From Pseudovirgaria hyperparasitica (Eukaryota), in assembly GCA_010093815.1 (NCBI GenBank), contig ML996573.1: a stretch of DNA of 64,000 nucleotides. One strand, written 5' to 3'. The translations under genes were made by a program, and so were the position numbers. A model generated the notes under the pieces. It ran no database searches and was not told the origin of the DNA. It saw only the letters and a program-made list of their open reading frames with translations. Shown in pieces: positions 1-33,840 of the stretch; within the stretch, counting starts at the first letter, position 1, and the number at the start of each line of letters is the position of its first letter.

Positions 1-1
1 C

Positions 2-5465: not shown

Positions 5466-5498
5466 GAAGTTTTGAAATCAGCCGCGAGGGCAACCGCC

Positions 5499-6566: not shown

Positions 6567-7027
6567 CTAGTACTCAAAATCATCGCCAATTCGAACATGA
6601 TCCGGGATTATAGGCTCTTCTGTGTAGTCCTCATGCTTCATGTACTCCTCAAACCAACGTTCTAGTCTCGCAAATCCTTTCAATGGGTCCCGATTATACA
6701 TCTGCTTCATGTATATCACATTAGCAGCCAACGCAAAGTCAGGCATCGTTGGACCATCAGGGCTTTTACCAAGCCATCGACCCCCACTACCACCCGCCAC
6801 CCACTCTTCAATCTTCGTAAAGCGCTTCTGCCATTGTGTACGCGCGTCTTCTGCCGAAATTCGAGAGCGATTCTCGTCTGCCAGCCCGCTCCAATGAGGC
6901 GCAGCTTACTAGAGTGTCGTGTGTATACAGTGCCCCAAATGATGTTCTCATCGATCATTCGGATGATGTCACTGTTGTTGTCGGAAGGCACTTTGAGTGA
7001 GGAACACTGTTTCCCAAACGGGACTAG
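6567..7027 (-). pseudogene. Glutathione S-transferase C-terminal-like gene, frameshifted and 5'-truncated by the Copia insertion
   Basis: DIIRMIDENIIWGTVYTRHSSKL, then a frame change near 6895-6905, then HWSGLADENRSRISAEDARTQWQKRFTKIEEW...WLG...PTMPDFALAA...LERWFE. The PT..D.AL motif and helical pattern resemble GST_C. Upstream sequence is replaced by TE at 7028. Confidence 0.5.
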
Positions 7028-10000
7028 TGTCTAAACGGTTAAATAGCTTCGACTCTATCTCCTAGAACTTAGTTCTTTATATATATAATTATAGAATATA
7101 TTTAATAACCTTAATTATATCTACTTTCTACTTATAATAGATTATAAGTCTAGCGCTTTACTATAAAAGCCTTAAAATACCTCTTTATTAATGAAAACTA
7201 TTATACTTTAATAAAAAATAAGTCCCTTTTCTAAACTTTAAGTTTCTATATTAATCTTATTAAAGTTTTTACTTTAATTCTACTACTCTATTAACTCTCT
7301 ATCTCTATATTATTCTTACTATTCTCTATACTATCCTTCTACCTCTTTTACCCTTACTATCTTCCTTATAAATAAGTAATAAGTAGAAAGAGTTAGAATA
7401 AGAAACTATTAGTTCTATATAAAGAAAAGAGAAGGAACTTAAGGAACTTAAGGAACTTATTAATAATAAATATACCTATTAACTTTAAACTTAACCCCTT
7501 CTCTCTATCTAAGCTATCTTTAAGAGAAGAAAATTTCCCTAAGTAGAGATTAGCTTAGATAATTATATTTAAATATATATAATTATAGATAATAGTCTCT
7601 AGTAGGGTTATTAGACCCTTTAGTACTAGAGTTATAGATTTATATATAGATATAATAGATTAGAATATAAAGGATAATAAGATAATAATTATATTACTCT
7701 CGTTAATATATTAAGATCTTATTATAGGTCTTACTTCCTATAATATAGTAGTAGCTATATAGAATTACCTATTATTATATTTCGACCGTAATATTAATAA
7801 TTCTTTAATATATCTATTTAGATTACTTACTAACCTCTACTATAAAGATAGAGAAGATATTTATAAATATATTAATAATTTCTATTATACCTAGATATAA
7901 ATAGTAAAAAGATATATTACTTTATCTTATATAGTTATAAAAGTAATACGTCTAATCTTTAAGTCTAAAGAGATTAAGGGCTTATTCTTTCTTATCTTAT
8001 TATCTAATACTATAGACTATATTATTAATAATTTATTAACTTAAGATATATTATATTTTTAAGATATTAAGCTAAAGATACTTAACCTAGCTAAGAAATA
8101 TAGTATTAAGCCTAATACTATAGGGTATAAGGCTAGTTATAAGGGTAAGTCTAGTTAGCCTTCTAGGTTAAAGAAGTCTAACTCCGCCTCTATCTCTACC
8201 TCTACCTCTAATACTAAATATATATAGTATAAGAAACGCGGCTTCTCTTCTAAAGGTTATAAGTATTAAGACTATTATAAACTTAAAGTCTCTAAGAAAG
8301 ATAATAAGTCTAAAAGTAAGAAGGCTTCTAAGTCTTTCTCTAAAAAGGACTCCTTAAGTAAGTAATAAAAGGCTAATAAGGCTAAAGTTATTGAAATTTT
8401 AGATTCTAAATCTAACTCTAACTCTAATAATAACGTTGTTAGTTTCTTTATAACTATAGCTAATATAAATAGTAAGTAATCTTAAATAGTAAGTTAGCCT
8501 CTTATTTAAGTAATATTTTCGGACCTAAGTATTAAGGCTATTAGACTTCTTACGAATTCTAATATAACTATAGGCATATATAACTAGATCTTTAATTTAG
8601 ATATATTATAATATATATCGGGTTATATAGATGACTTTACCTTACTAGAACCGTATACCTCTAGTAATATATTAATTATAAATTATAAGAAGATTTCTAT
8701 TAATAGTATTAGAATAGTTTTCCTAGATTATATCCTCTTAGACGGTTCTATAAAAAAGGTTAAACTTACTAATATCCTCTTTAGTAAGTAACTAAATTCT
8801 ATATATCTTTTCTTCTAGTTATATATTAGAAATTAAGGGTATAGTTTAAGAGTAAAAGGAAATAACCTCTTCTTATATAACTACTACGGATCTAAAGTAA
8901 TATAGATAAAATTCTATAAGGGCCTTATAAAGATTTACCTATACTATATATCTCCTCCGCTTCTATTATATACTATAGTATACTTTATATTATATAAAGA
9001 ATTCTATTATACTATAGATTATTATTACGTTATAAATTCTAAAAGACTTTATAAAGATTTTAATATAATTTCTAAGCGGCTAAGTAACTTCTACTATAAG
9101 AGTTATAGTATATCTAAATCTATATATAAGAAGCCTTTAAGCTTAAATAGATAATATAAGATACTATTTAGTAGAGTTTATAGTAATCTCTCTAGTAAGA
9201 TACTATATAAGTCTCTAAATAGGTTATGGTACTATATCTCCTTTATTAAAGAATTAACTTATTTTATATAGATCTATTTTATAAAGTATAAGTTAGAAGC
9301 TTCTAATATTATTATATAATTCTTTATATATATTAAGAAGTAATTTAATATAGGTATTAAGGAGTTTATATTTAACTAAGGCGGTAAGTATATTACTAAA
9401 AGTCTTTAAGACTTCTTTCGTAAGACTAGTACTATATATATTACCTCTTCTATCTACTCTTATAAGTTAAACGGAATAGCCGAAAGGTTTAACTATATAG
9501 TTTAGATATTAGTAAGATCTATTCTCTCTTCTAATACTAAGTTAAAGTTCTAGGCTAAAGCTATTTATATAATAATATTCGTTAAGAATATTATACTATA
9601 TACTTCCTTTCTAATAGTTAATACGCTATATTATACTCTCTTTAGTAAGAAGCCTTCTATTTAAAACTTATATCTATTTAGAGTTATCTACTATATATAT
9701 ATTCTAAAAGAAGTATAAAAGCTAGGTAGTAAGCTCCTTTATAGATTAGAGAAAGGTATTCTAGTTAGCTATAGTAAATTAGATAAAATCTATACGTACT
9801 ATATTTCTAACCGTAAGATTATTATCGAGTTATAAGACGTTACTTTTATATCCTTTAATCTAAGACTACTTCTATAGTAATCTCTTTCCTTAATTATTAT
9901 AGAAAGAGATAGCTCTAAAGAAGAGTCGGATAATAGGGGAGTATCTTATAATATACTAGCCGTAGACTAAAATATATAGAATCTCTAACCCTATATAGAT

Positions 10001-11092
10001 AATATAATAAGTCTTACTAAGATACTCTAATAAAGATTATCTACCCTTTCTTATAGTAGGACGTCTTCTACTATACCTAGAGTAAATTAACTAAAATTTA
10101 AATCTTTCTCTAGCCATGACCTACCTTATAAAAATCTATATCCGTTAAGATTACCTTCTAATATATCTCGTTTTAGAAGGAAATATAAGTATATAATTTA
10201 TTTTAATAACTCTATAAATTTTATAGATATAGAAGAGAAGGAAATAATCTATACTCTATTAGTTAATACTACCTTAAATATAGACGTTCCTTTAAATTTA
10301 AAAGAGGCTAGAAATTCTTCTAATTAGTATTAGTAGTAAATAGCTATTAAGAGAGAACTAAGAAGTTATAAGATTAATTAATTATAGTAGAAAGCTCCGC
10401 TTACTACGAATATCCCTATAATAGTTAGCTCTAGATAGGTGTTTAATATTAAGACTACTACGGATAATACTAAAGTTTATAAGGTATATCTTATTATATA
10501 GAGCTTTACGTAGAAATACAGTCTTAATTATAATAAAACTTTTATACCTATTATTAAGTATAATTCTCTTTATATTATACTCTAATAGGCTGTATAATTT
10601 AATAAATATATTTACTAGATTAATTTTAATACTATCTATCTAAATAGTAGTCTATCTAAAAATATCTATATGCAATACCCGCCCGGTTTTAAAAAACCAG
10701 GTAAGATCCTTAAGTTATAAAAGGTAATTTATAGCTTAAAATAGTCCGGTTAAGAATGGTTTTATACCTTATATAACCTCCTTTAATCTCTTAAATTTTA
10801 ATAATTATAGTTTAACCTATGTATCTTTATTAGATATATTATTATTACTATATATATAGATAATCTTCTACTTATTAGGGAGAGCTTATATATATAATAA
10901 TTTAAATATAAGGTCGCGAACTATATAAAATGTAAAGACCTTAGAAAAGCCCGCCTAATTCTAGGTATTAAAATTGATTAATTATAAGAAGGTAAAATTA
11001 AGCTTTCTTAGAAGACTTACTCTTAACGTATTCTAAAGAGGTTTAGTATAATAGACTATAATAGTCGAAAGACTCTAATTAACGTAAATACC
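7028..11092 (+). mobile_element. Ty1/Copia LTR retrotransposon, RIP-inactivated, 5' portion (LTR ~7028-7139, gag, PR, IN, RT); interrupted in RT by Gypsy-1 copy A
   Basis: TGT start at the GC/AT boundary. PBS GATTATAAGTCTAGCGC at 7140 (RIP form of the fungal copia GGTTATGAGCCC PBS). Integrase NGIAERFN at ~9470-9493 precedes RT (de-RIP [24 protein letters not shown], ~10480-10555), i.e. Copia domain order. Confidence 0.85.
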
Positions 11093-11892
11093 TATAAGAA
11101 TAGGGTTATTAGATAGTAGTATAGTTAGATAGAATAATAGAGTATATTCCGTCATAGAATAAATTACTACTAAACTCTTTTAGTAGAAATCTAAGAGTAT
11201 ATATATAAAGGGACGCCGATCTATTTAGTATATAACCGTTTACCGCCTATTATACTACCTCCTAACTAAGTTAGCTAAGATATATATAGATATAGTTATA
11301 CCTAAGACTAGATTCTAATAATTATCCCCTTTCTTTAGGAAGCTACCCTTAGTAACCTAGATTATTACCTATCTCTATATCCCTATTCTAAGTCTTATAA
11401 GACCTTAGTTATTCTCTATACTCTATCTTAGATATATATAGACTCTAGCTAATCTAAGATTTATATAAGCGTTTTTCTAATAAACTAGAGTTTATCTATT
11501 CTAAATTCTTATATAGATAGAATTACCTAATTAGGCCTAGCGTATCACGTAATATAATTAGATAAGCCTAGATACTATCTATATTAAAATCTTTTCTTAG
11601 AAATATTCCTTTCCTTAAAAAACTTTATAACTTATTATAGAGTTTTTTAGATTATTAGATATATTATTTAATTCTTATAGATATAGATTTATATAAATTT
11701 ACTATAATTTACTACGATTTATATAGCTTACTAATTTTCGTAGTATATATAGCTAGTAATAATAATAATCTATAAGAATCTATATAAATTAGTAATAATT
11801 ATAATATAGTTTTCTAAAACCTTAACGCTTAGAAGTAATTAGTATAGAAATAGATACCTTTAAATAATCCTTATCTTATCTATATTAATAAT

Positions 11893-12787
11893 ATAACGAA
11901 AGCTATTAATCTACTCTAACCTAGGCCGGGCTCTAATAATCTAACTATATATTATTATAGTTATTACTTTTTATTAGCGCGTGTGTATAGTAGTACTAAT
12001 TCTATAACTTATGGTACTTATATAACTAAGAAGCGCTATTATTTATAGGTATTTAAATAGGTTTAAGGAGCTTTACATAGATTTACTTATATTTATATAG
12101 GTTAATATTAGATAACACCTAAACGCTACTAATAAGGAGCGTAGTACTAATAATCGGAATTCTTTAGAAACGTCCTTCTATAAATTATATAAATATAGTA
12201 TACTTTACGGCTAGGAGTACGATTCTATAGAGATTTACGCTAATCTAGCTAAAGCTACTTTAGCTATAATTACCGCGATTACTAGGTAATATCGTTTTTC
12301 TTAAATTATTATAGATCCTTACTAATATATATTAATCTCTATAATAGTACTAAGATCTCTACTACTTTAGACATCTTTCCATATACTAGTAATATTAAAA
12401 TTCCTAGGAAAAAGTCTAGAGAAAAGGCTAAGATTCTATCCTTACGCGTACTAAAGAGCTATAAAGTTAGCGAAGATAACTCTAATCTAGAGGTTTCTAT
12501 ACTAAAGGTATATAGTTCTATACCGATCGTTAAATCTTTTCGCTAATTTATATAATTCCTAGCGTACCCGCGCTATTCTATCTCTCTCTACTCTAGTTCC
12601 TACCGCTCTATAGGTTTCTATAGAGAATTTTATAGCTATAAGGCGCGCTATATAGGGTTTATAGCGTCGGAATAAAAGGCTAGAGACTTATATTATAAAG
12701 CTCTATACTATACTAACTAAGAATTAGTAGAAGGAGTTAGATATAATTATTACGGTAATTAGTTCTTCTACTTCTACTCTAACTTAA
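11893..12787 (+). pseudogene. Antisense spliced accessory gene of Gypsy-1 (copy A allele)
   Basis: Same four-exon GT-AG structure as copy B; exon 2 is 185 nt in both; start RIP-mutated to ATA. Confidence 0.55.
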
Positions 12788-13086
12788 TTAGTTTAGATCT
12801 ATACTAATTAGTACTAGTATATTTCTTTTATCTAGCGTTTTTAGTTTTCGGTTTTAATTTTAAAGTAATCTTACTTCTTCTATATAGATTAGTACGAGTT
12901 TATATAGATCTATATAGATCTTTCTATTTTCTTTTAGTTTTCTTAATTTTATCTTTCTTTAGTAATAACTTCTTTAATCTCTTTAGTAATCTATACTAAT
13001 CTATACCGATTAGTATAGATCTTTAATGTCTATTTCTCTTAGTAAATTATTTTTCTAAGTCTCTTTTTTAGTTAAACTTTTTTAGA

Positions 13087-13164
13087 GTTCTAAGTTTAAA
13101 CTTTCTAAGGAAGTTCTAAGTTTAAACTTTCTAAGGGAGTTCTAAGTTTAAACTTTCTAAGGAA
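13087..13164. repeat. 26-bp tandem repeat x3 in Gypsy-1 copy A (single unit in copies B and C)
   Basis: GTTCTAAGTTTAAACTTTCTAAGG(A/G)A repeated three times. Confidence 0.9.
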
Positions 13165-15339
13165 GTTCCTTAATTCCTTAGAATATTTTAAAGATCTATA
13201 TCTCTTTTTTCTTCTTTCTTTTAGATGGCCGTTCTTAGTACTAAACTATACTAAAAAACGTTAAATTACTATACTTTAGTATAATTCTCTACGATTCCGC
13301 GGCTTTCTTTACTAATTACTACTTATACGCTAATATTACTACTTTACTAATATTTATTATAGGTTCCTAAGTATCTTTATTAGAATTATATTCTTTCTAA
13401 TAAATTTTATATAGCTATATACTATCTTTAGCGTGTTATTAGCTAAGTATCTACTTAACTTTATAGATATCTATACCTTCTTATATAACTACTTTATATA
13501 GTATCTATTTAGAAGAATCTAGTAATAATAAGATATAAAATAGCTTAAGAAGTATAATATAGAATATATTATATATCTTTAACGTAGGAGGGAGTTCTAA
13601 CTTATATATCTAGTTATTAATTACACGAGTAATCTTATATAGACCTATTATTATATAGTTAAGCTTCTTCTTTAGTCTAATACTATAAATATTCTTACTA
13701 TTTAGTAAAACTTTATATCTAATATTAAAGATTATAGGTTTTCTACCCTTATTATAGTACGATTTACTATAATCTATAGTATCTTATAGTAACTTTATAA
13801 CGCTTCTTTATATTTAGAATAGTTCTATTATAATTTCTATCGCTTTAATATTAGATTATTCTACTTTAAACTATATTCCTAAGAACTACGCGTTATAGTT
13901 CTAACTAAAGTTTACTTTAAATAGACTCACGTAGGTTAACGTATATTAGCTATTATTATATATAAATTCCGCGATATAGACTAACCTTACCTAGTTATTC
14001 TACTTATAGTTATAATATACGTATAAATATACTTTAACTATCTAATTCTACTACTCTATCTATCTATCTATTTATAGATAGAACGTAGTACTAAGTTTCT
14101 ACTTAATTCCTAGTATATAGTAGAAATCCTTCTAAAATTTAGATATTATCTACGGACCTCTATCTAAAACTATACTATTTAGTATACTATAGAGCCGAAC
14201 TACGTTATAGAGTAGTATATCTATAAGATCTAGTACTTAGATTATCTTCCTTATAGAGATATAGTATAATATCTTTATATATCTATCTAGAACTACGAGT
14301 AAACTATTATAAATATATCTAAAATACTTACTTAGGAGTAGATCTATAATAAAATCTATTAATAATTCCTTCTATACCTTCTTTAGTATAGGTAATAGTC
14401 TTAATTTACTATATAGTAAGTATCTATATACTTTTATATACTAGTAAAGGTTATATATTTTTATATAGTTCTTTATATATTTATAAAGACCTAGCTAGTT
14501 ATATATTCTTTAGATTAAATTAACCGTCCTTATAATACTAAAGTATTCTACTAACACGTAATTATACTATTCCCTTAAAATATTAATTTATAAGCCGTCT
14601 TCTAGTATATAGAGTCGGCCTTAGAAGTAGATTATATCTAATTATCGTTTCTACCTTAATAACTATAGCGGATCTATAGTACTTTCTTTTATACTTATAA
14701 CTTTCTTTACTAATATATCGGAATTCTAGGTAGATTTAATTAAGTCTTTAAGGGTTTTCTTAGTTTCTTAGATATTTATTTAGATTACTTAATACCCGCT
14801 TTAATTCCTACGGAGAATCGCCGAAAGTATCCTAGCTTCTAGTATTCTATTAGATAACTAGTCTTATAGTATCTATAGTATAGTATAGTCTAAATTATAC
14901 TAACTATCTATATTATTCTATAATAATTTCTTATAATCTTTACGCTACGATAGAGGATTAGCTTTATTCTCTCTTCTAGCTTTATATAAGATTTTAAAGT
15001 TAAATATTAATATCTACTTAGCCTAACGTACTTATTAATGATTAAGAACCTTAGTTAATATAAAGTAACGTAGATTTACGTAATCTAATAATAATTTAAT
15101 CTAATATATAGAACCTTCTAAATAATATCGCTATTACTTAAAACTCTTAATAATTATAAGTATATTAAGATCATTAATAAGTTAAGTTAAATTAGTTATA
15201 AAGTATACTATTTTCTATCTACGTATCCGGTTAGTTATATTTATATATCTAACCGGTTTGCTACTATCTATAGTAATTATATATAATATATACTACTACT
15301 ATAGCTATAATAAGGTGCCTAAATTTAAGAAAACCTACT

Positions 15340-17155: not shown

Positions 17156-19152
17156 AAGTAGCTTATCTTTAATTACCTAGGGCTTAGGATAAGTCTTCTC
17201 TAGTATCTACTAATAATATAGTAGTAATATTACTACTCTACTAAGTATAATAATAATATTAGTGTTTTAACTAGGAAGAACTATATATATAGCCATATAT
17301 ATGCTCCACAGGCTCAGGCCTCCTCTAGTATTGGCTACTATATATACAAGAAAACCTCCTGTGATTGGCTCCCTAACTAGACCCTATTACTAACCTAACC
17401 TAGCCTAGTCTAAGTCCTCGAATCCCATTGGGTGATAAACTTACTTCTTATCCTTATATTAGGCTTTTATTACTATATTAGTACCGGCTCTTAATAACGC
17501 CCTAACCAACTATAGTAGGTATTACCTTTCTTGTGATTGGGTAGGTCGCTAGGCTAGGCCTAGTCTTTTATTCCTGTGTTACCGTGTTTTTTTCCTATCC
17601 ATGGGAATATAGCTTTGCGCCGGGCAGTAGTCATTGATTAAGATGACTAATGCTAGAGGGGGTGTATATCTAATAGGTCCATGCCTTAGCACTAACCCTA
17701 GCTAGGCCGAATTCGGAAATTGTTCTTCGGGGCTATGTAATCGTCTATAGGTAGGCGGGATACTTAATTAGGTATTGCCGTCTGTTTCGTGGTTACTAAG
17801 CCGGAGTAAGCGTAAGCTAAGCCGGATTAGGGTAGACAAGGCCCTAGTATATGGTGAAAATTCTATGATTCGAGCTAAGCTAGTTGTGGGTCTAGCCGCT
17901 CTAGGCGTCGCTCTACCACTTAAGGTGGCTTAGTAGGTGGCTATATTAGGTAATTCTCATCATGTAATGACGGTATAGTCATTTTCACATTACCTAATGG
18001 TCGCTTAGGACTAAGTAGTCATGTGACGGTAACCTTCACGTTACGTGCTCGCTTAGCCCCGTACACTTTTTAATAGAGCGTACGAAAACTAGTGTATAAT
18101 CTACTAAGTATAAATTAATTAAAGATAATTGCGACCTTATTATTTAAAATACTAGAGGCTCCGCGCGAGAGATATCTATTCTAAAACTATTCTTCTTTTA
18201 AGAATATAGCTAGCTAGTAGATACTAATCTCGCCCTTCCTTATAATCCGTTACTCTATTATTATAATAATTAGTAACTTTACTTAGTTAGACGGTTAGAC
18301 GTTTATAGACGGCTAAGTTATATAGTTCTCTAGAATATTAATAGAATAATCTATATAAAATAGCTATAAATTATATTTTAATAGGTGCTATTATTTAGTC
18401 GTAGAGAAATTACCTACTACTAGTCTATTACTAGAGATCTATATAGGTAGGGCTAATAATAAAGGGTATTCTATTACTATATATTCTAGAAGAATTAGTA
18501 GGAAAGCTTTTAATAAGCTAGGGAAATTCTTAGAATCTACCTAGTCTACTATTACGTTATATAGATCTATATAGAATAGTTAGTTAGCTAGTTTAATATT
18601 TACTTACGCCTAAATCTTTTCTATAGACTAATAGTAGTACTTTTTACCTACTTTTAGACGTAGGCGTAGGAGGATATTAGTTAGTTTAGATTAAGTATAA
18701 CTATTATAAGTCTACTAAATTAATATACTAGGTCTTATAAGGATAAAGCTAGTTATATATAGTAATTAGTTAATATTATAGAATATTTATAGGTTAGTAA
18801 CTATAAATAGTAGGCCGTATAGTTAGCTTAACTATAGTACTTATTTTTAGTTAATGGATCTAGGTCTAGTACTAACCTTTAAGTAAATAATATAAGAAAG
18901 TACTTAATAGTTATATATCTATAAAATGCTTTAGTAAATATATATATTATAATACTACTTATTATAATAGATATTAACGGCTCTCTACCTATAATAGCTA
19001 GAGGCGGATAGATATTATAACTTTAAGTAGTTATTAACCTAGCTAGGCTCCTAGTAGACTATTTCTATAAGCTTATCTAAGGTTATATTCCTTAACTAAG
19101 TCTAATAGAAGTATACTTTGCCAGATCTACCGACCAAATTCTAGACTATTAC

Positions 19153-22100
19153 TATAAGAATAGGGTTATTAGATAGTAGTATAGTTAGATAGAACAATGG
19201 GGTGTATTCTATTATAGAACGAATTACTACCGAACCCTTTTAGTAGGAATCCGAGAGTATATATATAAAGGGATACTAATCTATCTAGCACGTAACTATT
19301 TACCGCCCTTCACGTTACCTTCTAACTCTATTAGCTAAGGTATGTATAGATCGGGTTCTATCTAAGGCTAAGTTCTAATAATTATCCCTTCCCTCTAGGA
19401 AGCTACTCTTAGCGACCTAGGTCGTTATCTATCCCTATATCTCTATCCTAAGTCTTATAAGACCTTAGTCGTTCTCTACGCTTCGTCTTAGATATTTACT
19501 AATATTCGCCGATCTAAGATTTACATAAGCGTTTTCCTAATAAACTAGATTTTATCTATCTTAACTTCTTATATAGGTAAGATTGCCTAATTAGGCCTAG
19601 CGTATTACGTAATCTAATTAGGTAAGCCCGGGTACTATCTATATTAAAATCTTTTCTTAGAAATATTCCTTTCTTTAAAAAACTTCTTAACTCTTTATAG
19701 AGTTTTTTAGATTATTAGGTATATCACCCGATCCTTATAGACATAGATTTATATAGATTTACTATAATTTAGTACGATTTACGTAATTTACTAATTTTTA
19801 TACTATCCTTAGCTAGTAATAGTATAATTCGTAATAATCCGTATAAATTAGTAATAATTATAATATAGTTTCCTAAAATCTTAATACTCTAAAGTAATTA
19901 GCGCGGAAACAGGCGCCTTTAAATAATCTCTATCTTATATACGTTACTAATATGTCGAAAGCCATTAATCTACCCCGACCTAGGCCGGGCTCTAATAATC
20001 TAGCTATATATTATTATAGTTGTTACTTTCCGTCGTATATTACTTATAGTAGTACTAAATCTATAATATACGGTACTTATATAACTAAGAAGCGTTATTA
20101 CTTATAGGTATTTAAGTAAGTTCGAAGAACTTTACGTAGATTTACTTATATCGGTATAGATTACTACTAGGCCTCTAGTAACCCCTACTAATAAGGAGCG
20201 TGGTACTACTAATCGTAACGCCTTAGAGAAGGCTTTCTATAAGCTATATATCTAAGGTAAGAGTTACGCCTAGGAGTACGATTCTAATAAGATCTATAAG
20301 GATTTATTAGAATCTACTATAGCTATTATTACCGCGATTACTAGGTAATATCGTTTTTCTTAAATCGTTATAGATTCTTACTAATATATATTAATCTCTA
20401 TAATAGTACTAAAATCTCTACTACTTCGGACTTCTTTCTATATACCGGCGATATTAAAATTCCTAGAAAAGGTTCTAGTAAAAAGGCTAAGGTTCCTTCC
20501 TCGCGCGTGCTAAAGAGCTATAAATTTAGGGAAGATAGCTCTAATCTAGAAGTTTCTATACTAAAGGTATATGGTTCTATACCGATCGTTAAATCTTTTC
20601 GCTGATTTATATAATTCTTAGCGTGCCCACGCCGGTCCGTCCCTCTCCGTCCCGGGTCCCGCTACTCTATAGGTTTCTATAGAGGAGTTTATAGCTATAA
20701 GGCGCGCTATATAGAATTTATAGCGTTAGAACGAAAGGCTAGAGACTTATATTATAAAGCTCTATACTATACTAAATAAGAACTAGCGAAAGGAATTAGA
20801 TATAACCATCGCGGTAATTAGTACTTCTACTCCTACTCCGACTTAATCGGTTTAGATCTACACCAATCAGTACTAATATATCTCTTTTATCTAGCGTTTT
20901 TAGTTTTTCGGTTTTAATTTTAAAGCGATCTTGCTTCTTCTAGATAGATTAGTATGAGTTTATATAGATCTATATAGATCTTTATATTTTCTTTTAGCTT
21001 TCTTAATTTTATCTTTCTTTAATAATAACTTCTTTAATCTCTTTGGTAATCTATACCGATCTATACCGATCGGCACCGATTTTCGATGTCTATTTCTCTT
21101 AGTAAATCATTTTTCTAAGTCTCTTTTTTAGTTAAATTTTTTAAAGTTCTAAGTTTGAACTTTCTAAGGAAGTTCCTTAATTCCTTAGAATGTTTTAAAG
21201 ATCTATGTCTCTTTTACCTTCTTTCTTTTAGACGGCCGTCCTCGGCGCTAAACTATACTAAAAAATATTAAATCGCTATACTTTAGTATAATTCTCTATA
21301 ATTCCGCGGCTTCCTTTACTAATCGCTACTTATATACTAATATCGCTACTTTACTAATATTTATTATAGGTTCCTAAGTATCTTCGTTAGGATTATATCC
21401 TTTCTAACGAATCTTATATAGCTACGTGCTATCTTTAGCGCGTTACTAGCTAAGTATCTACTTAACTTTATAGATATCTATACCTTCTTACGTAACTACT
21501 TTATATAGTATCTATTCGGAATAATCTAGTAACGATAAGGCATGAAATGGCTCGAGAAGCGTAATATAGAATATATTATATATCTTTAACGTAGAAGGGA
21601 GTTATAACTCGTACGCCTAGTCATTGATTACACGAGTAATCTTATATAGACCTATTATTATATAGTTAAGCTTCTTCTTTGGCCTAATACTACGAATATT
21701 CTTACTATTTAGTAAAACTTTGTCCCTAATATTAAAGATTATAGGTTTTCTACCCTTATCATAGTGCGATTTACTATAATCTATAGTATCTTATAGTAAC
21801 TTTATAACGCTTCTTTACGTTTAGAATAGTTCTATAGTAATTTCTATTACTTTAACGTTAGGTCGTTCTACTTTAAACTAAGTCTCTAAGAACTATATAT
21901 TATGGTTCCGACCGAAGTTTACTTCGAACGGACTTATATAGGTTAACGTATATCGGCTATTATTATACACGAATTCCGCGACATAGACTAACCTTACCTA
22001 GTTATTCTACTTATAGTTATAATATACGCGTAAATATACCTCGACTATCTAGTTCTACCGCTCCGTCTATCTATCTATTTATAGGTAGAACGTAGTACTA

Positions 22101-25100
22101 AGTTTCCGCTTAATTCCTAGCGTATAGTAGAAATCCTTCTAAAATTTAGACGTTATCTACGGACCTCTATCCGAAACTATACTATTTAGTATACTATAGA
22201 GCTAAACTACGTTACGGAGTAGTATATCTATAAGATCCGGTACTTAGATCGTCTTTCTTATAGGGATGTAGTATAACATCTTTATAAATCTATCTAGAAC
22301 TATAAGTAAACTATTATAAATATACCTAGAACACTTACTTAGGGGTAGATCTATAATAAAATCTATGGATAATTCCTTCTATACCTCCTTTAGTATAGGT
22401 AATAGCCTTAATTCACTATATAGTAAGTATCTATATACTTTCGTATACTAGTAAACGTTATACGTTTTTATATAGTCTTTTATATATTTATAAAGACCCG
22501 GCTAGTCGTACGTTCTTCGGATTAAATTAACTATTCTTATAATACCGAAGTACTCTACTAACGCGTAATCGTACTATTCCCTTAAAATATTAATTCGTAA
22601 GCCGCCTTCTAGCACGTAGAGTCGGCCTTAGAAGTAGATTACGTCCGATCGTCGTTCCTACCTTAATAACCATAGTAGATCTATAGCGCTTTCTTTTATA
22701 CTTATGACTTTCTTTACTAATATATCGGAATTCTAGGTAGATTTAATTAAGTCTTTAAGGGTTTTCTTAGTTTCTTAGACGTTTATTTAGATTACTTAAT
22801 ACCCGCTCTAATTCNNNNNNNNNNGATAGAGGATTAGCTTTATTCTCTCTTCTAGCTTTATATAAGATTTTAAAGTTAAATATTAATATCTACTTAGCCT
22901 AACATACTTATTAGCGATTAAGGACCTTAGTCGACATGAAGTAACGTAGATTTATATAATCCGATAATAATTCGATCTAATATATAGAGCCTTCTAAATA
23001 ATATCGCTATTACTTAAAACTCTCGACGATTATGAGTAGTTCCTAGTCGTGTATATTATAACGCGTCTCTATATCCGCCATTTTACGGGAAAAGAAGGCG
23101 ACCGGGTACTATTATACCTTATCTTTCGCATCTTTATACGGTTAACTAATAATTCTAGTAATTATAAATCCTAACGCGTTAGTTTTAACCCGAATATACT
23201 TCTTAGGATTAAAATACCTAAGAATCGGCGTAGTTATAAAGTAATTCTTTAATAATCGGAACGTATCTCGCGCTTCCGGCGTTAACTATATCTTAACCGA
23301 CTTAGCTTTACGCTATACTCGCCCACCTATAGGGATTTTACCGCCATTCTCTATAAGTTTATTAAGCGGCGCCGTAATTCGTAAGAAGTCTATAATGAAT
23401 TTATAATAATAGTTCACGAAACCTATAAACGTTCTAATTTAACGTATAGTAGTAGGTTCTAGCTATTCTATAATAGTCTTTACACGCTCTAGCTCTATTT
23501 TTAGGCCGCCATATGTTATAATAAAGCCGAGAAACCCAACTTCTTATTAGTGAAACTCGCATTTAGATAATTTTATATAGAGTTTATACTACCTTAGACG
23601 ATTTAGTACCGATTTCACGTATTCTTTATAATTCTATATGCTATTAGAGTAAATTAGTATATTATCGAGATAAACTACGTAAATCACGTTAAGTAATCCT
23701 ATAAGTATAGTATTAATATATCCTTAGAACGCTCCTAGCGTATTTATTAGCCCGAATAGTATAATAGTATACTTAAAATAACTATATCTAGTCCGAAATA
23801 CGGTTTTCTACTTATCTCCATGATAAATTTAAAGCTAGTAATATATATCTTATAAATCTAGCTTTGTAAAGTACTTTACCTTTATTAATTAGTCTAAAGA
23901 TTTACTAACTAGTAGTAATAGATAACGATTCTTCTTAATTACCGTATTTAGTACCTAATAGTCGACGCATAGACGTAAACTTCTATCTTTCTTCTTTACG
24001 AAGAGAATAGATACACCGGCCGATAACGTACTATAACGTATCTAGCCTCTTTCGAGGTATTCTTTAATATATTTATAAAGAACTTTAAGTTCTAGTCTTA
24101 AAAGTAGGTAAAGTAGGCTATAAGGGACGTCTACTCCCTCTTCGAGCTCGATCTTTAGCTTATATAGCCCGTGATTAGGGAGAAGTAACGCATCTCCTAC
24201 CGAAAACACATCCGTATACTACGAATATACGTCGGGTAGCGTGTCTTCGCCCCGATTATTACTATTATCCTTGTCTTTATTAATAATCGATAAGGATATA
24301 AGATAGATTAGCGATAATCGGGTCCGCACGGCGAGGTTCCATGCCTCCTTACTAATAGTTATAACTTACTAGTATAATTTACTACGGTATCGTCGGAATA
24401 TTAATATCTCCTTCTAAAAATCAAGGATAGAGTTTAGGCGTCTAAGCTAAGGCATCCCTAGAATTATATTCTATTAGCTAATATTAGCCACGATAAATTT
24501 ATTAGACATCTACTATTTTATTATCTTCGAGTTATAAACTTCGTAATTCGTTATAGCTTTACCTAAAGTTCTAACTTTATATCCATTAACTACGATAGTT
24601 CGGCTAACTTTACTAAGATCGTATAATAATCTATACTCCTTTATAAGAATTAATAAAATATAGTTATCTTCTATACTAGTATCCACGAGGGCCTATATAG
24701 TTTTATTACCATTTACTATAGATAATAATACTTTTAGTAATATTAGGTCTTTACTCGCCGGAAGACGCTATAGCTCCTCCTAAGTATATATAATTTAGCT
24801 AAGGACGCGGTTAGGTCTCGTGTACTAGCCTATTCTTTTTTCGGATTCTTATAGTTAGGCGAAATATATTCTATTTCTCTATACTTATAGTAACGAAGTA
24901 TACTATAATCCTACTATTTTATAATAGGCGTTATATTTAAGTCTATACCTTATCCTTTTCCGCGTTAAGAAGCACCGCCTTAATTATTTCGGTATCCTCT
25001 TAACGCGTTTCTACCCTGATTTACGCTCTTCTAGCGCTAATCGCGGTAAGGTTACTCTTAATCGAACGTATTCGATCGACCTCGTTTCTAACCCGTATAG

Positions 25101-26405
25101 GGTTCGTTAGTTTTACCTAGAGAGCCGCGTTCCTTAAGGATATAGTAGTATTTATTAGCTTTCTCCTCTAATTTATATAGATAGTTAAAACTTAATAATA
25201 TTATTCCTAGTCTTTCGCGGATTAACGGAAGTAGTACTTCGTAAAACTAGAATATACGAATATTTTTCTATAGCGTAGGGATATTATTCTATAGGTTTTA
25301 GAGGTATTATAGTAGTTAAGTAGATATCTAGTTCGGTCGTTATGCCACGCTTCTTAACATAGATAGTACCTTTCTTTCACGTTCTCTATCCGTTCCGAGG
25401 GTGTTTAGTATAAATATAGCTAAATATTTCTAGGTTATCGTAGATAGTAGCTATACTTCCTTCTATCTATCCTATTAATCGCGGGATTATAAGTCTAGGT
25501 ATCGTTCTCCGAACGAAATACGTTATACTTTAGTAGAAAAGAGTAGAGGGTTATCAAGGAAGTACTTTTCGTAGTCTCTCTTCTAGTCTTTCTACTCCTT
25601 TTAGTTCTTCCCTATAAATATAGTTAGGTCTTTAGGTTTTAGTATACCTAGGGAAGGAGTAGGGTAAATCGGTAACGAAGCGGCCGGGTATACGGTAGAT
25701 TATCGTAACTCTAATAGTAGGTAAACTAATTCCGCCTGAATTAGTATAGGAAGTCGTCCATCTACTATCGTTCGGCGTAGTTCTTTAAGAGACTTCTTAA
25801 GTTCTCATCTCTTTATAAGGAGTTTCGCGCGTTCTATCTATTCTTTAAGGGTTTAAATCTCTTAAGTCTAATTCGCGACGTATTCGTAAAGTTCGGCGAT
25901 GGTTTATTATAATACCTCGCGTGGCTCCGCCACGACTCATCATCCGGCTTTATATTATTAGAAGTTACTCGGCGTCTCTACCATTTCTTCGTCTAAAAGC
26001 TCTGTGATTTAGTCTAACATTTCTACTTCTCGGTTAGAAATGGCCGGGATTAATACTAATTATAGAGGATCCCTATTATTTAATATAGTATTACTTATCC
26101 CTATAGTGGATCATATCGACCTTCTCGGTTCTAGTTAGACTATCTTAACTATAGTACTATATAGGGAGTAATTCGAATGTAAGAATAGGGTTATTAGATA
26201 GTAGTGTAGTTAGATAGAATAATAGGGTGTATTCTATTATAGAATAAATTACTACTTAACCCTTTTAGTAGGAATCTAAGAGTATATATATAAAGGGACG
26301 CCGATCTATCTAGCACGTGACTATTTACCGCCCTTCACGTCACCTTCTAACCCTGTTAGCTAAGGTACGTGCAGGTCGGGTCCTACCTAAGGCTAAGTCC
26401 TAACA
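19153..26405 (-). mobile_element. Gypsy-1 chromovirus copy B, full length; LTRs 19153-19380 and 26178-26405; TSD ATTAC
   Basis: 228-bp LTR pair; ATTAC at 19148-19152 and 26406-26410. Gag CCHC knuckle ~24850-24895, protease ALVDTG ~24670-24695, RT YLDD ~23660-23675, integrase, chromodomain ~21360-21490. N-gap at 22815-22824. Confidence 0.95.
19952..20846 (+). pseudogene. Antisense 4-exon accessory gene of Gypsy-1 (~241 aa; Cys-rich N-terminus, coiled-coil C-terminus); exons 19952-20107, 20160-20344, 20407-20566, 20622-20846
   Basis: ATG at 19952. Three 52-62 nt GT-AG introns, two with clear CTRAY branch sites (TACTAAT, GCTGAT). Splice phases 0/2/0 join to 726 nt. Internal stops are only TAA/TAG, compatible with RIP. 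Confidence 0.65.
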
Positions 26406-29400
26406 ATTACTATATACCGTTACCTAGTATTTAATAATTAGTTTATAATTACGCCTAATTTAAATATAGCGCTAATTATAGATAGCTATTACCATCTACT
26501 TATTTATAATAGTAAGTAGGTATATATCTTTTCTACGGTTGAAGCGGTTAAGTTCCTTTAGAAATAGTTCTAACTATTTAATAGATATTACTAGGTATAT
26601 TTTCTATATCTCTAGTAGCTCTAGTTTATACACCTAATAATCTACTATACGTTTAATTAGTACTAGTCCGACTTACTATTAGCTAAGCTTATAATAAGTA
26701 CCTAGAATCTTATACCCTTTATATAGTTAAATATAGATCTAGTTACCGGAAGCGAGGTCTAGTAGAGATATATAGCGCCTATTAAAACGCTTCTTTATAC
26801 GCGTCTAGGTAAATACTAGCGCGTCTAACGTCTCTTTCTAGTTTATATTACGCTTTTAGGCATAATTATTTACTTCTATTAAACTAGTCTTCTTAAATAG
26901 GGTGCCTTTAGATAGTTAGAAGCTATATACTATCTTATTTAGAGATTTTTATATCGAGGCGTTTATTAAATTATTTATAAGCCGCTAGACTAATAGAATA
27001 TAGGTTATCTAATCTATAGCCGGCGATATTAAAATAAGAAAACATAGAGTAATCTCTACCGTTTAGTTTATACGTTTACTTTAACTATTACTCTATTTAT
27101 AATAAGTAGTTAATACTAGGATTTTAGTACTAATACCCTTAAAAATTCCTTTCTAAAATAACGATAGGAATTTTCGGTCCCTATTATGAATAATTATAAC
27201 TAGAACTCTCTATTCTAGTAGTATACTCCTTCTAAACGTAGTTACCTATTACGTGGCGGTCTAGTTATTCCGGCCTAGAACGAGGTAGATTCGCTTAGTA
27301 AACTTATCTATTATAGTAAGTAGCGCGTTAAGCCTATTCTATATTAGTAGTCCGATAATAAAGTCTATTATAACTATATAAAATAGTATTAGTGGTAACT
27401 AGACTAGCTTTAATTTACTATACGGTGTATATCTTTATATTTAGTAAATTTTATAGATAGAATAGTACTAAATATAGTACTTTAGACGCTTTATAAGCTA
27501 ATAAATAAAGTAGCCTATATGAATTTAATTGTATACTTGGAAAAAACCTATATAAGTACTTTTATTATGGAATTAAGTAAAAATATCTCTATTAAGTGAT
27601 TTTAGTATATAGATCTAATATTGTCTATCGAGTTAATCGATATAATAAATTATACTATTAGTAAATTAAAAAGGAATTAGTTGGGTAACATTATTATTCT
27701 AGTCTAGTACTATAGCTTTTATACTTATCTAGTGCTTATTATTATTATATACGTTAGCTAGTTACCTTGTAAATTTTAGATTAATTTTAACTATTATAAT
27801 ATTAAATATTAAGAGCTCCTTAAGGACGTCTAAGTCTCTTAGCTAGGCTCTATTATAGATCTAATAGAGCCGAGAAAGAGCGTTAGGTACTACGTACTCT
27901 TTACCTAGTCTATATTTAAGTTCTAGGTTAAACTATAATAGATACTATAAGGCCCGTACTAGTTAGAGATTTAGCTTATTAACTAATAAGCTTATAAGTA
28001 CTATCTACTAAATAATACTCGGAGTAGCTACGTAGTTAGTAATAATAATTATTAGTTAGTCTAAACCGTTAACTATATAGCGTATTTAGTATATAGTCTA
28101 TATAACTACTACTACTTTAAGCTCTATTAGCTAGTACTACGACTTAGCTATAGAGAGTTCTTTACTAAGGTATAGAATAGACTTAATATCTAATTATCTA
28201 ATCTTTATAATATTATCTACTTCTCCTTTAATATAGTAAGCGAAGACTCTAAAGCTATACTTTAATACGTTAATGTCTACGTAGAGCCGTCGTTTTAGAT
28301 TATAGTAGATAAGCTTAGTCTTATCTATAAAGGCGGCCTAAATACCCTCCTAGAACGCTAGTAGCTAGTCTATCCGAGTAATCTTTATTTATTTATAGTA
28401 TACTATATATATATATCCCGCTAAAGGTACTTCTTTAAGAAGGCGCGTTTTCTCTATCTATAGATTCTAGGTAAGTTAAGCGTAATATAGTATATATTAC
28501 TATAACTAACCGGTTAGTCTAAGGTAGTATTCGAGCTTATCGAGCGTATTAGAATACTAAAGATTATATATAGCTACTAATTTCTCGGCTATAGTAGAGA
28601 GTCTATAAGCGTCGACCTTCTAACTAAGTAGGGTAATAGATAGATATCCTAAGTAATACTTTTTACCTTTAAGTATTAAGTTTCTTACTTATAGTATAGT
28701 AAATATCTACTAAAGGTAGTTAAGATACTTATTAAGTTCCTTACTAAAAATAGAAATATTATTAATATATACTATAGTAAACGCCTTGTATCTAGCTTTG
28801 CGTAAGATCTTATTAATCTACCTCTATATATATAGTAGAGAGTTATAGAAACCTATTAGAATAATATTTAACTACTTCTAGCCTTAGTATAATATAAACG
28901 TTAGTTTATAATAGTCTTTCTTAGTAACCAGCTACTAGTAGAAGAAGCTAGCTATATTAATGATAGATATAAACTTCTTTCTAGCCGTACGTTAGATAAT
29001 ATCGCCCTAGAGTAGTAACGGGTAGAAGTTCTTAATACTAATTTTATTTAGACCTCTTATATCTCTAACTACCTAACTAGCGTCTTTATATAATATCTAG
29101 ATAAGTAATTTTACTATAGAGTATATAATAAATATTAGAAAACTAAATAGTATTAACTATATTAGATATTCTATACGACCTTATATATAAAGCTTATTAT
29201 ATATCTTATTAATAATAGCCTTACCGCTCGCCCCTAACGGGTAGATATAGTAGCTTAGCTTTATACCGGCCGTTTTCTAGTTACTTACTAGGGGAATATA
29301 TATCTAATTCTTCTCTAGGATATTTACGAGTCTAGTATTATAAAATAAGCTAGCGTGACTTTAGATAATATTATTAAACTTCTAGATAGTTACTTTATCT

Positions 29401-32400
29401 TTAGCGTAAATTTTTACCCTAAACGCGCCTATCTATTTAACTTTATTAAGCTAAGTAAGCTTTATAGATAATCTCTCTATACTATCTAAAGGGACTACTT
29501 TAGCCTAAAATATATAGAGGGTATCTATTTCGTCTATTAATATACTAAGTCTTATATTTTTATTTATATATACCAATCTAAATCTATAGTTTATAATAAA
29601 TATATACGCTATATTTTAGTTGGTAAGATATATATAGACGCCTCCGCCTTAACTAAGCCTTATACTTATATATATTAGGGTAAATATATAATCTTCTATA
29701 GCTAACTCGTACTAGTAATAGATTATAATTAGAACTAGTATAAGTATTTATAGCTAGAGAATAGTATACTATAAAATAGTTACTCCCCGGCGCACTACTA
29801 GTTAAATAGTAGTAGTAAAGGTTAGTATAGTAACCCTACTATATATACTAATAGTTATTATATACGTACTTATATAGATATCTATCTTTTAAGATACTAT
29901 AACGTCCGTTCTAAGAAGGAGACCTATCTATAGATAGTTAAGAATATATATCTTATATATTACTTTTATAGTTATAGTAGTTAAACTATTAGACGTTTAG
30001 CCTAGAAGGAATAGTATAATAACTATAAATTTACTTAACTTTATAGACTTAACTCCCTCTACTCCCTAAATAGAAATAGCTAGTTAGATAAGTATTTAGG
30101 TATTAGGGTTCTACTATTTAAGAAAAGCTTAGTCGATTAGTATTACTACGCTTTCTATATCTAGGTAGATACGTTCGATAGAGCCGTTAAGACTAAGTAA
30201 GGCCTTAACTTAGATATAGTGTAGAAGGCCGCTCCTGTAGCCCTATATGTATGTGTCCCTAGCTCGATTACATGGCTTCATTGTATATTTAAGGAGGGCG
30301 TTTTCCTTGGTCATTCTGCTCGGCGCTCCCCCCATCACTAATATTCGACTATTCGATCTTTCCTTACGTTTATGGGCCTCTATAGGTATTGATTATTAGG
30401 CTTAGCTATTGAAGAATTAATTAAGAGTATTATATAGACCCGTCCTATCGTAAAAGAGAACTAATAAGAAGTCGTGCGTTTAAAGAGAACTCATAATACC
30501 TAGGAGAGATACTTGTAAGTTCGTCGCGACTACTATACTAGGAATATAGCCATTTATAAAAGGGATACACGTGGCGATAGCTTACTATAATTTTAGAGGT
30601 CGTACCTAGACTACGAACTTATAGGGGGAGATTAGAACTCCGAAACTAGCTTAGGGGAAGTATATGGCGTGCCTAATAAGGTAGTCTAGACTTACTAGAT
30701 CGAAGCCACGAGTCCGGAAAACAGGGAGTCCGGAGTCGCTAGGGGCTAGCCTCTTAAAAGTAGCCGTAAAAAGCATGCGCATGCTAATACGGGTGATAGC
30801 GCGACTCGAAAATGTCTTAGGGGAATAGGATATAAAACAGGGCTAGATGAAGTAGTAAAGAAGAGTTTAAAAACGATAAATATAACCTGTTTAGTACTAC
30901 TATAGCTATTATTTATAAACACGGCCACACGAGTATACTACTTTAGGAACGCCTTACACGAAGATAATAATATAAGTAGAATACCGTGAACCTTATATCA
31001 ATAAAGACGATAGTAATAGTTTACCTTATAAAGGGATTAGTTAATATAGAGAAGGGATGATAGGTGTTATAGGTAGACGCATTAGGCCAACCTTTAGTTA
31101 AGGTAATCCCTTAACTAATAACCTTACCCCTAGCGTCTCTACTAGTATACTTACTACTAGTAATAGTATAATAGGAGCTTAAAATAACGACCTAGTAACT
31201 CGTAGAGAGATACTTAACTTCTTCGTAGTATTTGCGCGATAAGGAAGGATAGTATCTCTACCTACCCTAGCCCCCGAGCGCTTTAAAGGAATAAACATTA
31301 CGGCCTTCCTTCGGAAGTATAAGGATATATATATAAACTACGAAGTTCCGCCTAATAAGAAGATAACCTCTCTACCGTTATACTACGAGGACCATCTCCG
31401 TCCTACTATTAAAGGAATAAGTAGGTTTTAGAAATAGTAGTAGGCTATACTATATAAAGAATTATTAAAGGAATTCTCTCTATTTAACTCTACCCTTAAG
31501 GAAGGCACCATCCACTTTATCCGAAAATACGTGGAAATGGTTAAAGTAGACCTATCCTACTCTCTCTCTATATACTACTCCCGGTATCGTGTTATCACGG
31601 AGAAACTTACGGCTAAAGGAAGCCTAAGCTTATATTCGCGAATAGAGCTCTTCCTAGAAGGGCTGCCTAATAGTCTTAAGGCTCGGGCTATAGAGAAATG
31701 TTAACTCACGATGGAAGTACATAGTTATAACTAGGTAATTATCTATGGCTTCGTATTATAAAAGGCTAGAGCACTTAAGGAACTAGCTCGTATTAATAAG
31801 TACTTAGCCGCATAAGAGCTAGCTATAGCCATATACTATAAATTAAAGATAGAGAGTAAGAAGACCGGCTTAGAAGAGTAGTTACATGAAGAAAGAAGAA
31901 CTAATAAATTTAACTACCCCTCTCTAGTCGTAGTACACGTTACGCTAGAATCGGATAAGTTTAACGAGATAGTAGAGAGATTTAGTAAACTAGACCTTAC
32001 GTTAATTAAGATGAAGTCCTACTTTATCTCTAATCCCTTATTTCTATCCCTTAAGAAGTACGAACCTAAGCTACTTTCGGCTATTATTAACTAGTAGACG
32101 CGAAGGCTAAATCTTTTAGTATATCCCTAAGTACGAGGCATGCCTATAGAACTAACGTAAGTTTATCCATAGAATTATATATAGAATAGAGAATACGTCT
32201 CTACCCGAGACTCCTAAGGGGGCGTTATAGCCTAGGATAGGCCTCAAAGACCGATTATATATATTACATGCGGAGAAGATTACCTAATATATAGATATCC
32301 GGAGATAGTAGAATATATTAGAGACGGATTACTAAATATTAACGGGGTGCGAGTGTTCTAAGGGCGTTTCGGGGCGAACGGAGAAGAAATCCTATTACTA

Positions 32401-33801: not shown

Positions 33802-33840
33802 CGGATTATTAGTTAATGGCTACCCTTAACTAATAATCCG
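33802..33840. repeat. Shared palindrome copy (Gypsy-3 gag-pol junction)
   Basis: CGGATTATTAGTTAA-tggctaccc-TTAACTAATAATCCG. Confidence 0.9.

Follow-up and report, generated by a model that had tools for sequence, protein, structure and literature searches.

The 64,000-nucleotide stretch of Pseudovirgaria hyperparasitica DNA analyzed here (contig ML996573.1 of GenBank assembly GCA_010093815.1; hereafter the window) contains one gypsy-type long terminal repeat (LTR) retrotransposon, Gypsy-1, in three copies, A, B and C, which were delimited by BLAST comparison of the window with itself. Pfam matches to RVT_1, RNase H, integrase and SH3_Tf2-1 were obtained in minus-strand frames only, with none in any of the three plus-strand frames. 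Because the pol domains lie on the minus strand and a purine tract abuts the LTR, gag-pol of copy A runs from right to left and the repeat at 19155-19384 is its 3' LTR; the LTR pair of this copy is 89% identical over 230 nt by self-BLAST. The pol end matches SH3_Tf2-1 (E = 2.5e-11) and Integrase_H2C2 (E = 7.2e-05), and relatives of the element carry a chromo domain (PF00385). Homology of pol to these relatives stops near 21320, from where about 1.9 kb extends to the 3' LTR (19384). Between the pol end and the 3' LTR, in all three copies, sits a spliced reading frame (19952-20846 in copy A) on the plus strand, opposite to all pol domains. A preliminary description of this DNA had placed such a frame opposite gag-pol in every copy, and the minus-only Pfam domains together with the fit of the model to copies B and C confirm it. 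The spacer probably holds the remains of an antisense gene of about 241 codons in about four exons.

Spliced together, the four proposed exons (Table 1) total 726 nt, that is, 241 codons followed by TAA, and their phases join. The coordinates given earlier, the exon sizes of 156, 185, 160 and 225 nt and the GT-AG introns joining in phase were all recovered from the sequence. Under the four-exon model, the exons of copies A, B and C align in MAFFT without indels, which is only weak evidence of frame constraint because sequence simplified by repeat-induced point mutation (RIP) can mask compensating one-base gaps. The donor, branch-like motif and acceptor of intron 2 are identical across the three copies, and the donor of intron 3 is GTATAT in copies A and C and GTATGT in copy B. 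Intron 3 of copy B also contains a run of ten N, beside which some 95 nt of the copy's own sequence are duplicated (48930-49089); misassembly at a gap is the most likely cause. The positions of the exon borders are uncertain, above all at intron 1. Upstream of the ATG, the stretch reaching back to the LTR gave no coding signal: its codon scores hardly differ from zero, and every frame contains 14-24 stops in 189 codons.

RIP is close to saturation in the candidate region, because TpA accounts for 94% of TpA+CpA+TpG sites there, compared to 28% in the host genes of the window. Eight internal stops interrupt the frame of copy A; seven are TAG and one is TAA, and six occur as TAG in all three copies. 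All stops in the frame are TAA or TAG, which is what RIP makes from CAA, CAG or TGG. In copy A, exon 1 has one stop in 52 codons, exon 2 two in 61 and exon 3 none in 53, and exon 4 contains five internal TAG stops, four of them common to the three copies; the other two frames carry 3 and 9 stops over exon 1 and 3 and 10 over exon 3. The shared stops are no sign of ancient stops, because 23 of the 30 stops in the true pol of copy A (integrase frame) are also common to all copies. All three copies are dead, copy A having eight premature stops and copy C having lost its start codon, and the copies in the window have no present function beyond that of AT-rich repeat DNA.

The most serious alternative to a gene is that the spacer is non-coding, a long 3' untranslated region in which the four-exon frame is a pattern assembled from TA-rich RIPped DNA where GT and AG abound. 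We consider this rather unlikely, as several mutually independent signals agree. First, the stop density of the spliced frame (8 of 241 codons; 3.3%) is half that of the true pol frames of the same copy (30/430 and 27/400; 6.8-7.0%), while values of 8-13% were found in off frames and 7-13% in the spacer flanks. Second, when a dynamic programme was used to pick the best GT-AG-spliced frame, the region scored 178, the top value among tiles of similar GC content, compared to 127 +/- 19 for 300 dinucleotide shuffles of the region, only three of which reached 178. Third, exon 3 displays a 3-periodicity of stop trinucleotides with chi-square values of 17.7-22.4 in the three copies, against a 99th percentile of 14.6 for 2639 windows. 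Exon 3 of every copy thus ranks among the 0.5% most periodic windows, and the other windows of top periodicity fall in real coding DNA, the RIPped gag-pol of a Copia element, which gave the periodicity and codon-score tests a positive control that had not been planned. Tandem repeats as a cause of the periodicity were sought within 19.4-21.3 kb and none was found.

Codon usage gave a fourth signal. Training a codon model on RIP-simulated versions of the window's three host genes, with stops left unscored, gave scores of +2.0, +15.6, +12.2 and +10.2 for exons 1-4 of copy A (sum +40), with sums of the same sign for copy B (+49.1) and copy C (+27.8). The other five frames summed to between -9 and -34; over exon 2 alone the other frames scored -4 to -12, and over exon 4 they scored -17.0 and -1.8. 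Compared to control frames chosen for few stops, the sum of the proposed frame had P = 0.0045, and training on single genes gave P = 0.0012 (BIR gene alone) or 0.06 (Tam41 alone). The host-trained model is weak but general: it selected the true frame in 18 of 40 chunks of real RIPped pol (chance about 7), and it also lights up the RIPped Copia pol at 7.6-10.9 kb. In a sliding scan with this model, the best frame switched from 2 to 0 near 20110-20160 and from 0 to 2 near 20330-20400, at introns 1 and 2. Since RIP makes no indels and all copies share these switches, introns are the simplest explanation for them.

Table 1. Positions of the proposed antisense gene, of the Gypsy-1 copies and of other features discussed in the text. 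Positions are those of the window, except for the two relatives, whose positions refer to their own loci.
Feature	Position	Strand	Details
Presumed promoter and 5' untranslated region, LTR to ATG	19385-19951	+	
Proposed exon 1	19952-20107	+	156 nt, 52 codons; ATG at 19952; last codon TAG
Proposed intron 1	20108-20159	+	52 nt; GTATTT...TATAG; GT-AG in three copies
Proposed exon 2	20160-20344	+	185 nt
Proposed intron 2	20345-20406	+	62 nt; GTAATA...ACTAAT...AATAG
Proposed exon 3	20407-20566	+	160 nt; Lys/Arg-rich patch about 20465-20491
Proposed intron 3	20567-20621	+	55 nt; CTGAT/CTAAT branch-like motif; YAG acceptor
Proposed exon 4	20622-20846	+	225 nt; 74 codons and TAA at 20844-20846
Model in copy B	48315-49314	+	Exons 48315-48470, 48523-48707, 48770-48929 and 49090-49314; by alignment
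Model in copy C	11893-12787	+	By alignment; start ATG changed to ATA
Gypsy-1 copy A	19142-26409	- (gag-pol)	Self-BLAST
Gypsy-1 copy B	47505-55174		Self-BLAST
Gypsy-1 copy C	11092-15162 and 57244-60002		Split; self-BLAST
3' LTR, copy A	19155-19384	-	Self-BLAST
5' LTR, copy A	26180-26409	-	Self-BLAST
Putative polypurine tract adjoining the 3' LTR	19385-19396	- (purine-rich)	Read from the sequence
Integrase-to-chromodomain end of pol	21320-22609	-	Pfam; convergent with the antisense frame
Haspin-like kinase, end	2-463	+	Host gene
Two-BIR-domain protein	1473-2642	-	Host gene
Tam41	3405-4829	+	Host gene
Antisense gene of relative L011	2839-3246	-	136 codons, single exon; tail to tail with pol
Antisense gene of relative L022	5713-5865	-	Tail to tail with pol

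The best-supported feature of the predicted protein is a coiled coil, because RIP leaves hydrophobic residues hydrophobic. A heptad, leucine-zipper-like run in exon 4 (20688-20774) has Leu or Ile at every seventh residue; eight of its nine a/d positions are hydrophobic and the ninth is Asn, compared to only 5 of 20 at the other positions. Just 7 of 106,921 control windows equalled this pattern (0.014 expected per 241 codons), which bears out the earlier observation that exon 4 is heptad-like and argues against a chance pattern in non-coding DNA. Assignment of the run to a bZIP domain was rejected, as the preceding residues are Gly/Pro/Ser-rich instead of basic and no Pfam match was obtained.

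The N-terminal part is harder to place. Codons 21-50 of exon 1 (20012-20101) contain Tyr and Cys positions with zinc-cluster-like spacing, with Tyr at codons 40, 43 and 50 and a TGT at codon 24 of copy A that is the only surviving Cys codon. Conversion of C-x2-C to Y-x2-Y by RIP is visible in the integrase zinc-binding motif of the same copy. The preliminary description had read the TAY codons at C-x2-C-x6-C spacing, together with the intact TGT, as half of a Zn2Cys6 cluster. These codons are present, but 119 instances of the half-motif were counted in 113,996 control codons, a rate of 0.25 per 242 codons, about the length of the protein. If Tyr is counted as a possible former Cys, the full six-position spacing (C-x2-C-x6-C-x5-12-C-x2-C-x6-8-C) is found in exon 1 of copies A and C; it matched 7 times in 127,996 codons, and the five matches outside the candidate all contain stops. 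Copy B, in contrast, has CGC (Arg) and CAC (His) at codons 25 and 32 of this register, which speaks against Zn2Cys6. A Pfam search with eight exon translations (copies A and B, X at stops) returned no family at E <= 10 and did not reach the Zn_clus gathering score, a failure expected either way because RIP turns Cys codons into Tyr. The heptad run also lies about 130 residues downstream of the cluster positions, far beyond the usual short linker of Zn2Cys6 proteins. A zinc-cluster identity of the product, as judged from residue spacing, is possible, though not likely.

Three other arrangements of the frame were considered and rejected. A rival frame for exon 4, which a donor at 20574 would open, contains fewer stops but has a negative codon score and lacks the heptad run. 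A two-exon model lacking exon 2 gives no in-frame join from the coordinates. Among other acceptors for intron 1 that would move the Y-x2-Y of exon 2 near the exon 1 motif, none beats exon 1 alone.

Intact relatives were collected with a profile of six chromoviruses, which yielded 79 metagenomic loci and 77 viral-contig loci, 12 of the latter being chromovirus-like and used here. The RIPped integrase of Gypsy-1 matches only chromoviruses, at no more than 32% identity. Locus L005 has the closest pol, with a reverse transcriptase 44% identical to that of RIPped Gypsy-1; normalizing for RIP raised pol identity only from 44-45% to 46-48%. L005 carries a Cys-rich antisense open reading frame (6308-6844, minus strand, plus a downstream exon) that lies 770 nt beyond pol. 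Its first 100 residues have three homologues among 1.8 billion representative proteins (E = 2e-32 to 6e-17), all of which end exactly at a canonical 71-nt intron (GTAGGT...ACTGAC...CAG), and removal of this intron extends the frame to 236 codons. None of the other 90 chromovirus loci screened contains the L005 gene. Kinship of the Gypsy-1 frame to the L005 type was tried and rejected: against the N-terminal profile, copy A scored 48.75, near the 95th-99th percentile, with copies B and C at the control mean, and when the protein was scored in its full spliced length, copies A, B and C were equalled by 380, 497 and 321 of the 800 controls, respectively.

A second antisense gene, in L011, was found among the loci elsewhere only in L022. 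The L011-type protein consists of a C-x2-C-x6-C-x8-C-x2-C-x6-C cluster followed by a long helix or coiled coil and has 40 homologues (P0022-P0061; E = 1e-55 to 1e-12) without Pfam annotation. The coil opens with the residues DGNFS..DFDKL. Of 27 members, 10 match Zn_clus weakly, the best of them (E = 0.0011) falling short of the curated cut-off. Its AlphaFold model contains two short cluster helices (pLDDT 51-63) and a confident helix at residues 38-108; the sole Foldseek match was the Zn2Cys6 protein PPR1 (1pyi_A), at a non-significant E = 8.4, and a sequence search of the PDB with the L011-type profile gave coiled-coil noise only. Proteins with a similar cluster in a language-model atlas are hypothetical and derive mainly from Ascomycota. 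Cys-to-Tyr changes typical of RIP occur in several database members of both the L005- and L011-type families. A Pfam search of 65 antisense open reading frames from the relatives detected no Zn_clus or DUF3716 at E <= 0.01. Intact metagenomic chromoviruses have Cys-rich antisense genes of at least two unrelated families, neither of which is in Pfam.

In a second register, codons 21, 24, 40, 43 and 50 of the Gypsy-1 frame give a gapless match, over an equal total span, to five of the six cluster Cys of the L011 type, the third ligand position being Thr/His. With a RIP-aware profile alignment that permits reversal at TpA, 20, 99 and 12 of 3000 control segments reached the cluster scores of copies A, B and C (P = 0.007, 0.033 and 0.004, respectively). 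The RIP-aware score of the whole protein against the L011 type was at about the 90th percentile of controls, and plain tblastn found nothing. On these comparisons, the Gypsy-1 frame is not demonstrably related to either the L005 or the L011 type.

A number of results weigh against an antisense gene and favour a non-coding spacer. The proposed four-exon model itself scores 135 in the spliced-frame test, within the range of the optimized shuffles; the optimum of 178 uses other introns than those proposed, and the best intron sets differ between copies A and C. The introns had been described as fungal-sized with GT-AG borders, and such introns are present, but triples of GT, branch-like YTRAY and YAG with 45-70 nt spacing occur at 14.5 per kb in the candidate and at 16-22 per kb throughout AT-rich DNA on either strand, and intron 1 has no YTRAY branch motif. 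Exon 1 carries no codon signal, its host-trained score being only +2.0. A second codon model, trained on the RIPped pol of Gypsy-1 itself with stops ignored, identified the right frame in 26 of 31 held-out pol chunks and gave -8.5, -5.9, -2.9 and -8.2 for exons 1-4, no better than other frames. Transversions, a kind of change that RIP does not produce, number 29 in the 185 nt of exon 2 between copies A and C, 9 in the 156 nt of exon 1, 1 in 169 nt of introns and 8 in 1290 nt of integrase; by codon position they are distributed 14, 17 and 18. This pattern is not that of purifying selection, because it has no third-position bias and is dense in exon 2 and rare in introns.

The searches for homologues point in the same direction, as do the frequent half-motif and the absence of Pfam families noted above. 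With exon 3 of each copy as query, a word-indexed search of 5.8 billion proteins gave no candidate, and a language-model atlas queried with exon 3 gave no usable match. In tblastn of all exons, the best E value was 0.14 against the 79 metagenomic chromovirus loci and 0.002 against the 12 viral-contig loci, the latter a Tyr-rich match inside pol with inconsistent placement. Simulating RIP in both the exon queries and all 91 target loci left a best E of 7e-4, Tyr-rich noise. A comparison of the exons with the spacers of the other gypsy families in the window gave nothing below E = 0.01.

Exon 2 (20160-20344 versus 12101-12285 in copy C) is itself a hotspot of non-RIP change between copies, without alignment gaps, and could reflect diversifying change, a recombinant patch or hidden compensating indels. 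The divergence pattern overall is neutral to slightly against an antisense gene and fits a fast-evolving segment or a recombination patch. Against a non-coding spacer, in addition to the frame-specific signals and the rare heptad run, stands the spacer itself: 1.9 kb between pol and LTR is unusual, and relatives fill theirs with antisense genes.

The coding signal might also come from a host gene captured in reverse orientation, perhaps a fragment without a role in the life cycle, instead of an old gene of the element. The codon make-up of the exons, which resembles that of RIPped host genes (+40) and not that of the element's own pol (sum -25), is what capture would leave, and so are the retained introns. 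Accessory genes differ even among close pol relatives (the L005 and L011 types), which fits repeated capture, and captured host-type domains are described in extra open reading frames of plant elements (PMC4408406). The codon likeness, however, rests mainly on one training gene, that for the BIR protein, and no host homologue appeared in the Pfam, 5.8-billion-protein or language-model atlas searches. The gene is also present in all three copies, including the 84%-identical copy C, and has therefore been carried through many transposition cycles. We regard capture as improbable. Coding on the sense (minus) strand, as a C-terminal extension of Pol or an extra sense frame, is very improbable: although the minus frame continuing pol remains open and rich in Lys/Arg over about 400 nt beyond the chromodomain, and 19952-20846 can be read on the minus strand with as few as 22 stops in 298 codons (7.4%), near the true pol rate, the minus frames over the exons score -31.5, -8.8 and -9.1 with the host-trained model and -25.9, -25.8 and -13.8 with the pol-trained model, and pol homology ends before the exons are reached. 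In the intact relatives seen here, the pol reading frame terminates directly behind the chromodomain.

The reading we favour, with somewhat better than even confidence, is that an antisense accessory gene with introns, since killed by RIP, lies in the Gypsy-1 spacer and that its product had a dimerizing coiled coil at the C-terminal end. Frame-specific coding signals in three copies, frame switches at introns and antisense genes in the same place in intact relatives make this the best reading; the layout, the frames, their statistics and the parallel in intact relatives are observed here. Transcription, splicing and function of the gene we infer. In an active ancestor, the antisense gene would have been transcribed from its own promoter near the 3' LTR, convergent with pol. 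Introns antisense to the genomic RNA survive retrotransposition and sense introns are lost, because retrotransposition uses an RNA intermediate, a principle exploited in antisense-intron retrotransposition reporters. The small introns of Gypsy-1 would accordingly have been spliced in the antisense transcript only and, being invisible in the genomic (sense) RNA, would have been copied at each retrotransposition. The product would have combined an N-terminal part rich in Cys and His, a basic patch and, at the C terminus, a leucine-zipper-like coiled coil, and because of this combination it was most likely a dimeric nuclear protein that bound nucleic acid or chromatin and acted on the element's own expression. 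The preliminary description had gone further, to an element-encoded DNA-binding and dimerizing regulator. Of this, the antisense gene stands as the best reading and the heptad run backs dimerization, but the Zn2Cys6 part is no more than a possibility, no homologue emerged from the Pfam, protein or chromovirus-locus searches and the pol-trained score is negative.

A broader proposal would be that many ascomycete chromoviruses encode an antisense regulator with a Gal4-like, DNA-binding Cys cluster and a dimerizing coiled coil, with introns in some lineages, that the Gypsy-1 relic is a RIP-dead member of this group and that these genes are the counterpart of the antisense leucine-zipper factor of a human retrovirus. 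We put this forward only tentatively and think it rather unlikely. If the Gypsy-1 relic is real, its small introns would mark the gene as one passed on through sense RNA. The more useful result is the intact relatives, with at least 40 antisense proteins carrying a six-Cys cluster and a coiled coil, and a Cys-rich antisense gene with a canonical intron. They are the better follow-up material and make the question of retrotransposon-encoded transcription regulators in fungi directly testable. The RIP-aware codon model and profile alignment may help with other genes wrecked by RIP.

The surroundings of the element are themselves layered. The window starts with ordinary host genes (1-6500; GC about 0.49), and from about 7000 onward it consists of AT-rich, RIP-mutated repeat DNA (GC 0.22-0.40); at about 7000 the GC content falls from 0.45 to 0.23, and host genes directly adjoin the AT-rich block. 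The two parts of copy C are separated by some 42 kb of inserted DNA in which copies A and B are nested together with at least one other gypsy family, a retrotransposon nest of several layers. A 26-nt unit located between the antisense frame and the pol end is repeated 3.8 times in copy C (13072-13168) and is present in one to two units in copies A and B (aligned at 21142). The Copia element is a heavily RIPped Ty1/Copia gag-pol in a single plus-strand frame (7601-10900; GC 0.22-0.25) with Pfam matches to RVT_2 (6e-24) and SH3_retrovirus (5e-07); it ends at 11091, cut off where Gypsy-1 copy C inserted.

A third gypsy family (30100-41500, plus strand) is less RIPped (GC 0.38-0.40) and has LTR-like ends, an RNase H at about 35.4 kb, an integrase zinc motif at about 36.2 kb and a distance of about 3.7 kb from pol to its 3' LTR. 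On its minus strand, at about 39600-41100, one frame of about 500 codons has 3-5 stops per 100 codons and may be another, longer antisense gene relic; it gave no Pfam match and no similarity to the Gypsy-1 exons. A fourth gypsy pol (61281-63993, minus strand), 33-35% identical to that of Gypsy-1, runs past the window end. The DNA hosting the copy B insertion (43500-47500 and 55175-57243; GC about 0.40) scores higher on the plus strand than any other part of the window in the spliced-frame test, with no Pfam match in the three plus frames.

Several known systems resemble the proposed gene in part. With Gal4-type Zn2Cys6 proteins (PF00172) it would share the overall architecture, in which a Cys cluster with basic residues is joined through a linker to a dimerizing coiled coil, but it has one surviving Cys codon and lacks any Pfam match at E <= 10; judged by title or abstract, no publication among those retrieved joined Zn2Cys6, retrotransposons and antisense genes on this topic. 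The L011-type genes are likewise antisense and tail to tail with pol, with cluster positions that correspond at five of six sites and a coil paralleled by the Gypsy-1 heptad run, whereas they have a single exon and a coil directly after the cluster in place of three introns and about 130 intervening residues. HBZ of human T-cell leukaemia virus type 1 (HTLV-1) encodes a leucine-zipper factor on the antisense strand, and its spliced transcript originates in the 3' LTR. By analogy only, it may be likened to the Gypsy-1 gene as a retroelement-borne antisense spliced gene for a dimerizing nuclear regulator; it belongs to a human retrovirus and is unrelated in sequence, and the Gypsy-1 frame has neither a basic region before the heptad run nor a bZIP match in Pfam.

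The layout of an antisense gene beyond pol is already known from plants and grey mould. Antisense extra open reading frames lie between pol and the 3' LTR in the plant Ty3/gypsy elements Grande1, RIRE2, Retand and PvRetro13 (PMC7264820, PMC4408406), and those of the plant Tat lineage encode a PMD plus a coiled coil, some ending in a predicted coiled coil (PMC4408406). They match the Gypsy-1 frame in position and orientation, some in the coiled-coil end, and in being of unknown function and kept within families; they belong to another kingdom and another gypsy lineage, and the Gypsy-1 frame lacks a PMD or transposase-28 domain. The closest known system, on the descriptions available, is brtn of the Boty/BcGypsy1 element of grey mould, a gene of unknown function antisense to gag-pol between pol and the 3' LTR (PMC8365987, PMC7264820). 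Both elements are fungal gypsy elements of the chromodomain type with an extra antisense gene (a probable one in Gypsy-1) in this interval, present in copies of the family; the likeness is one of described layout alone, and the Gypsy-1 gene differs in being known only as a RIP-dead relic. If that relic is real, Gypsy-1 would be the second fungal case, beside brtn, of a retrotransposon with its own backward-facing gene.

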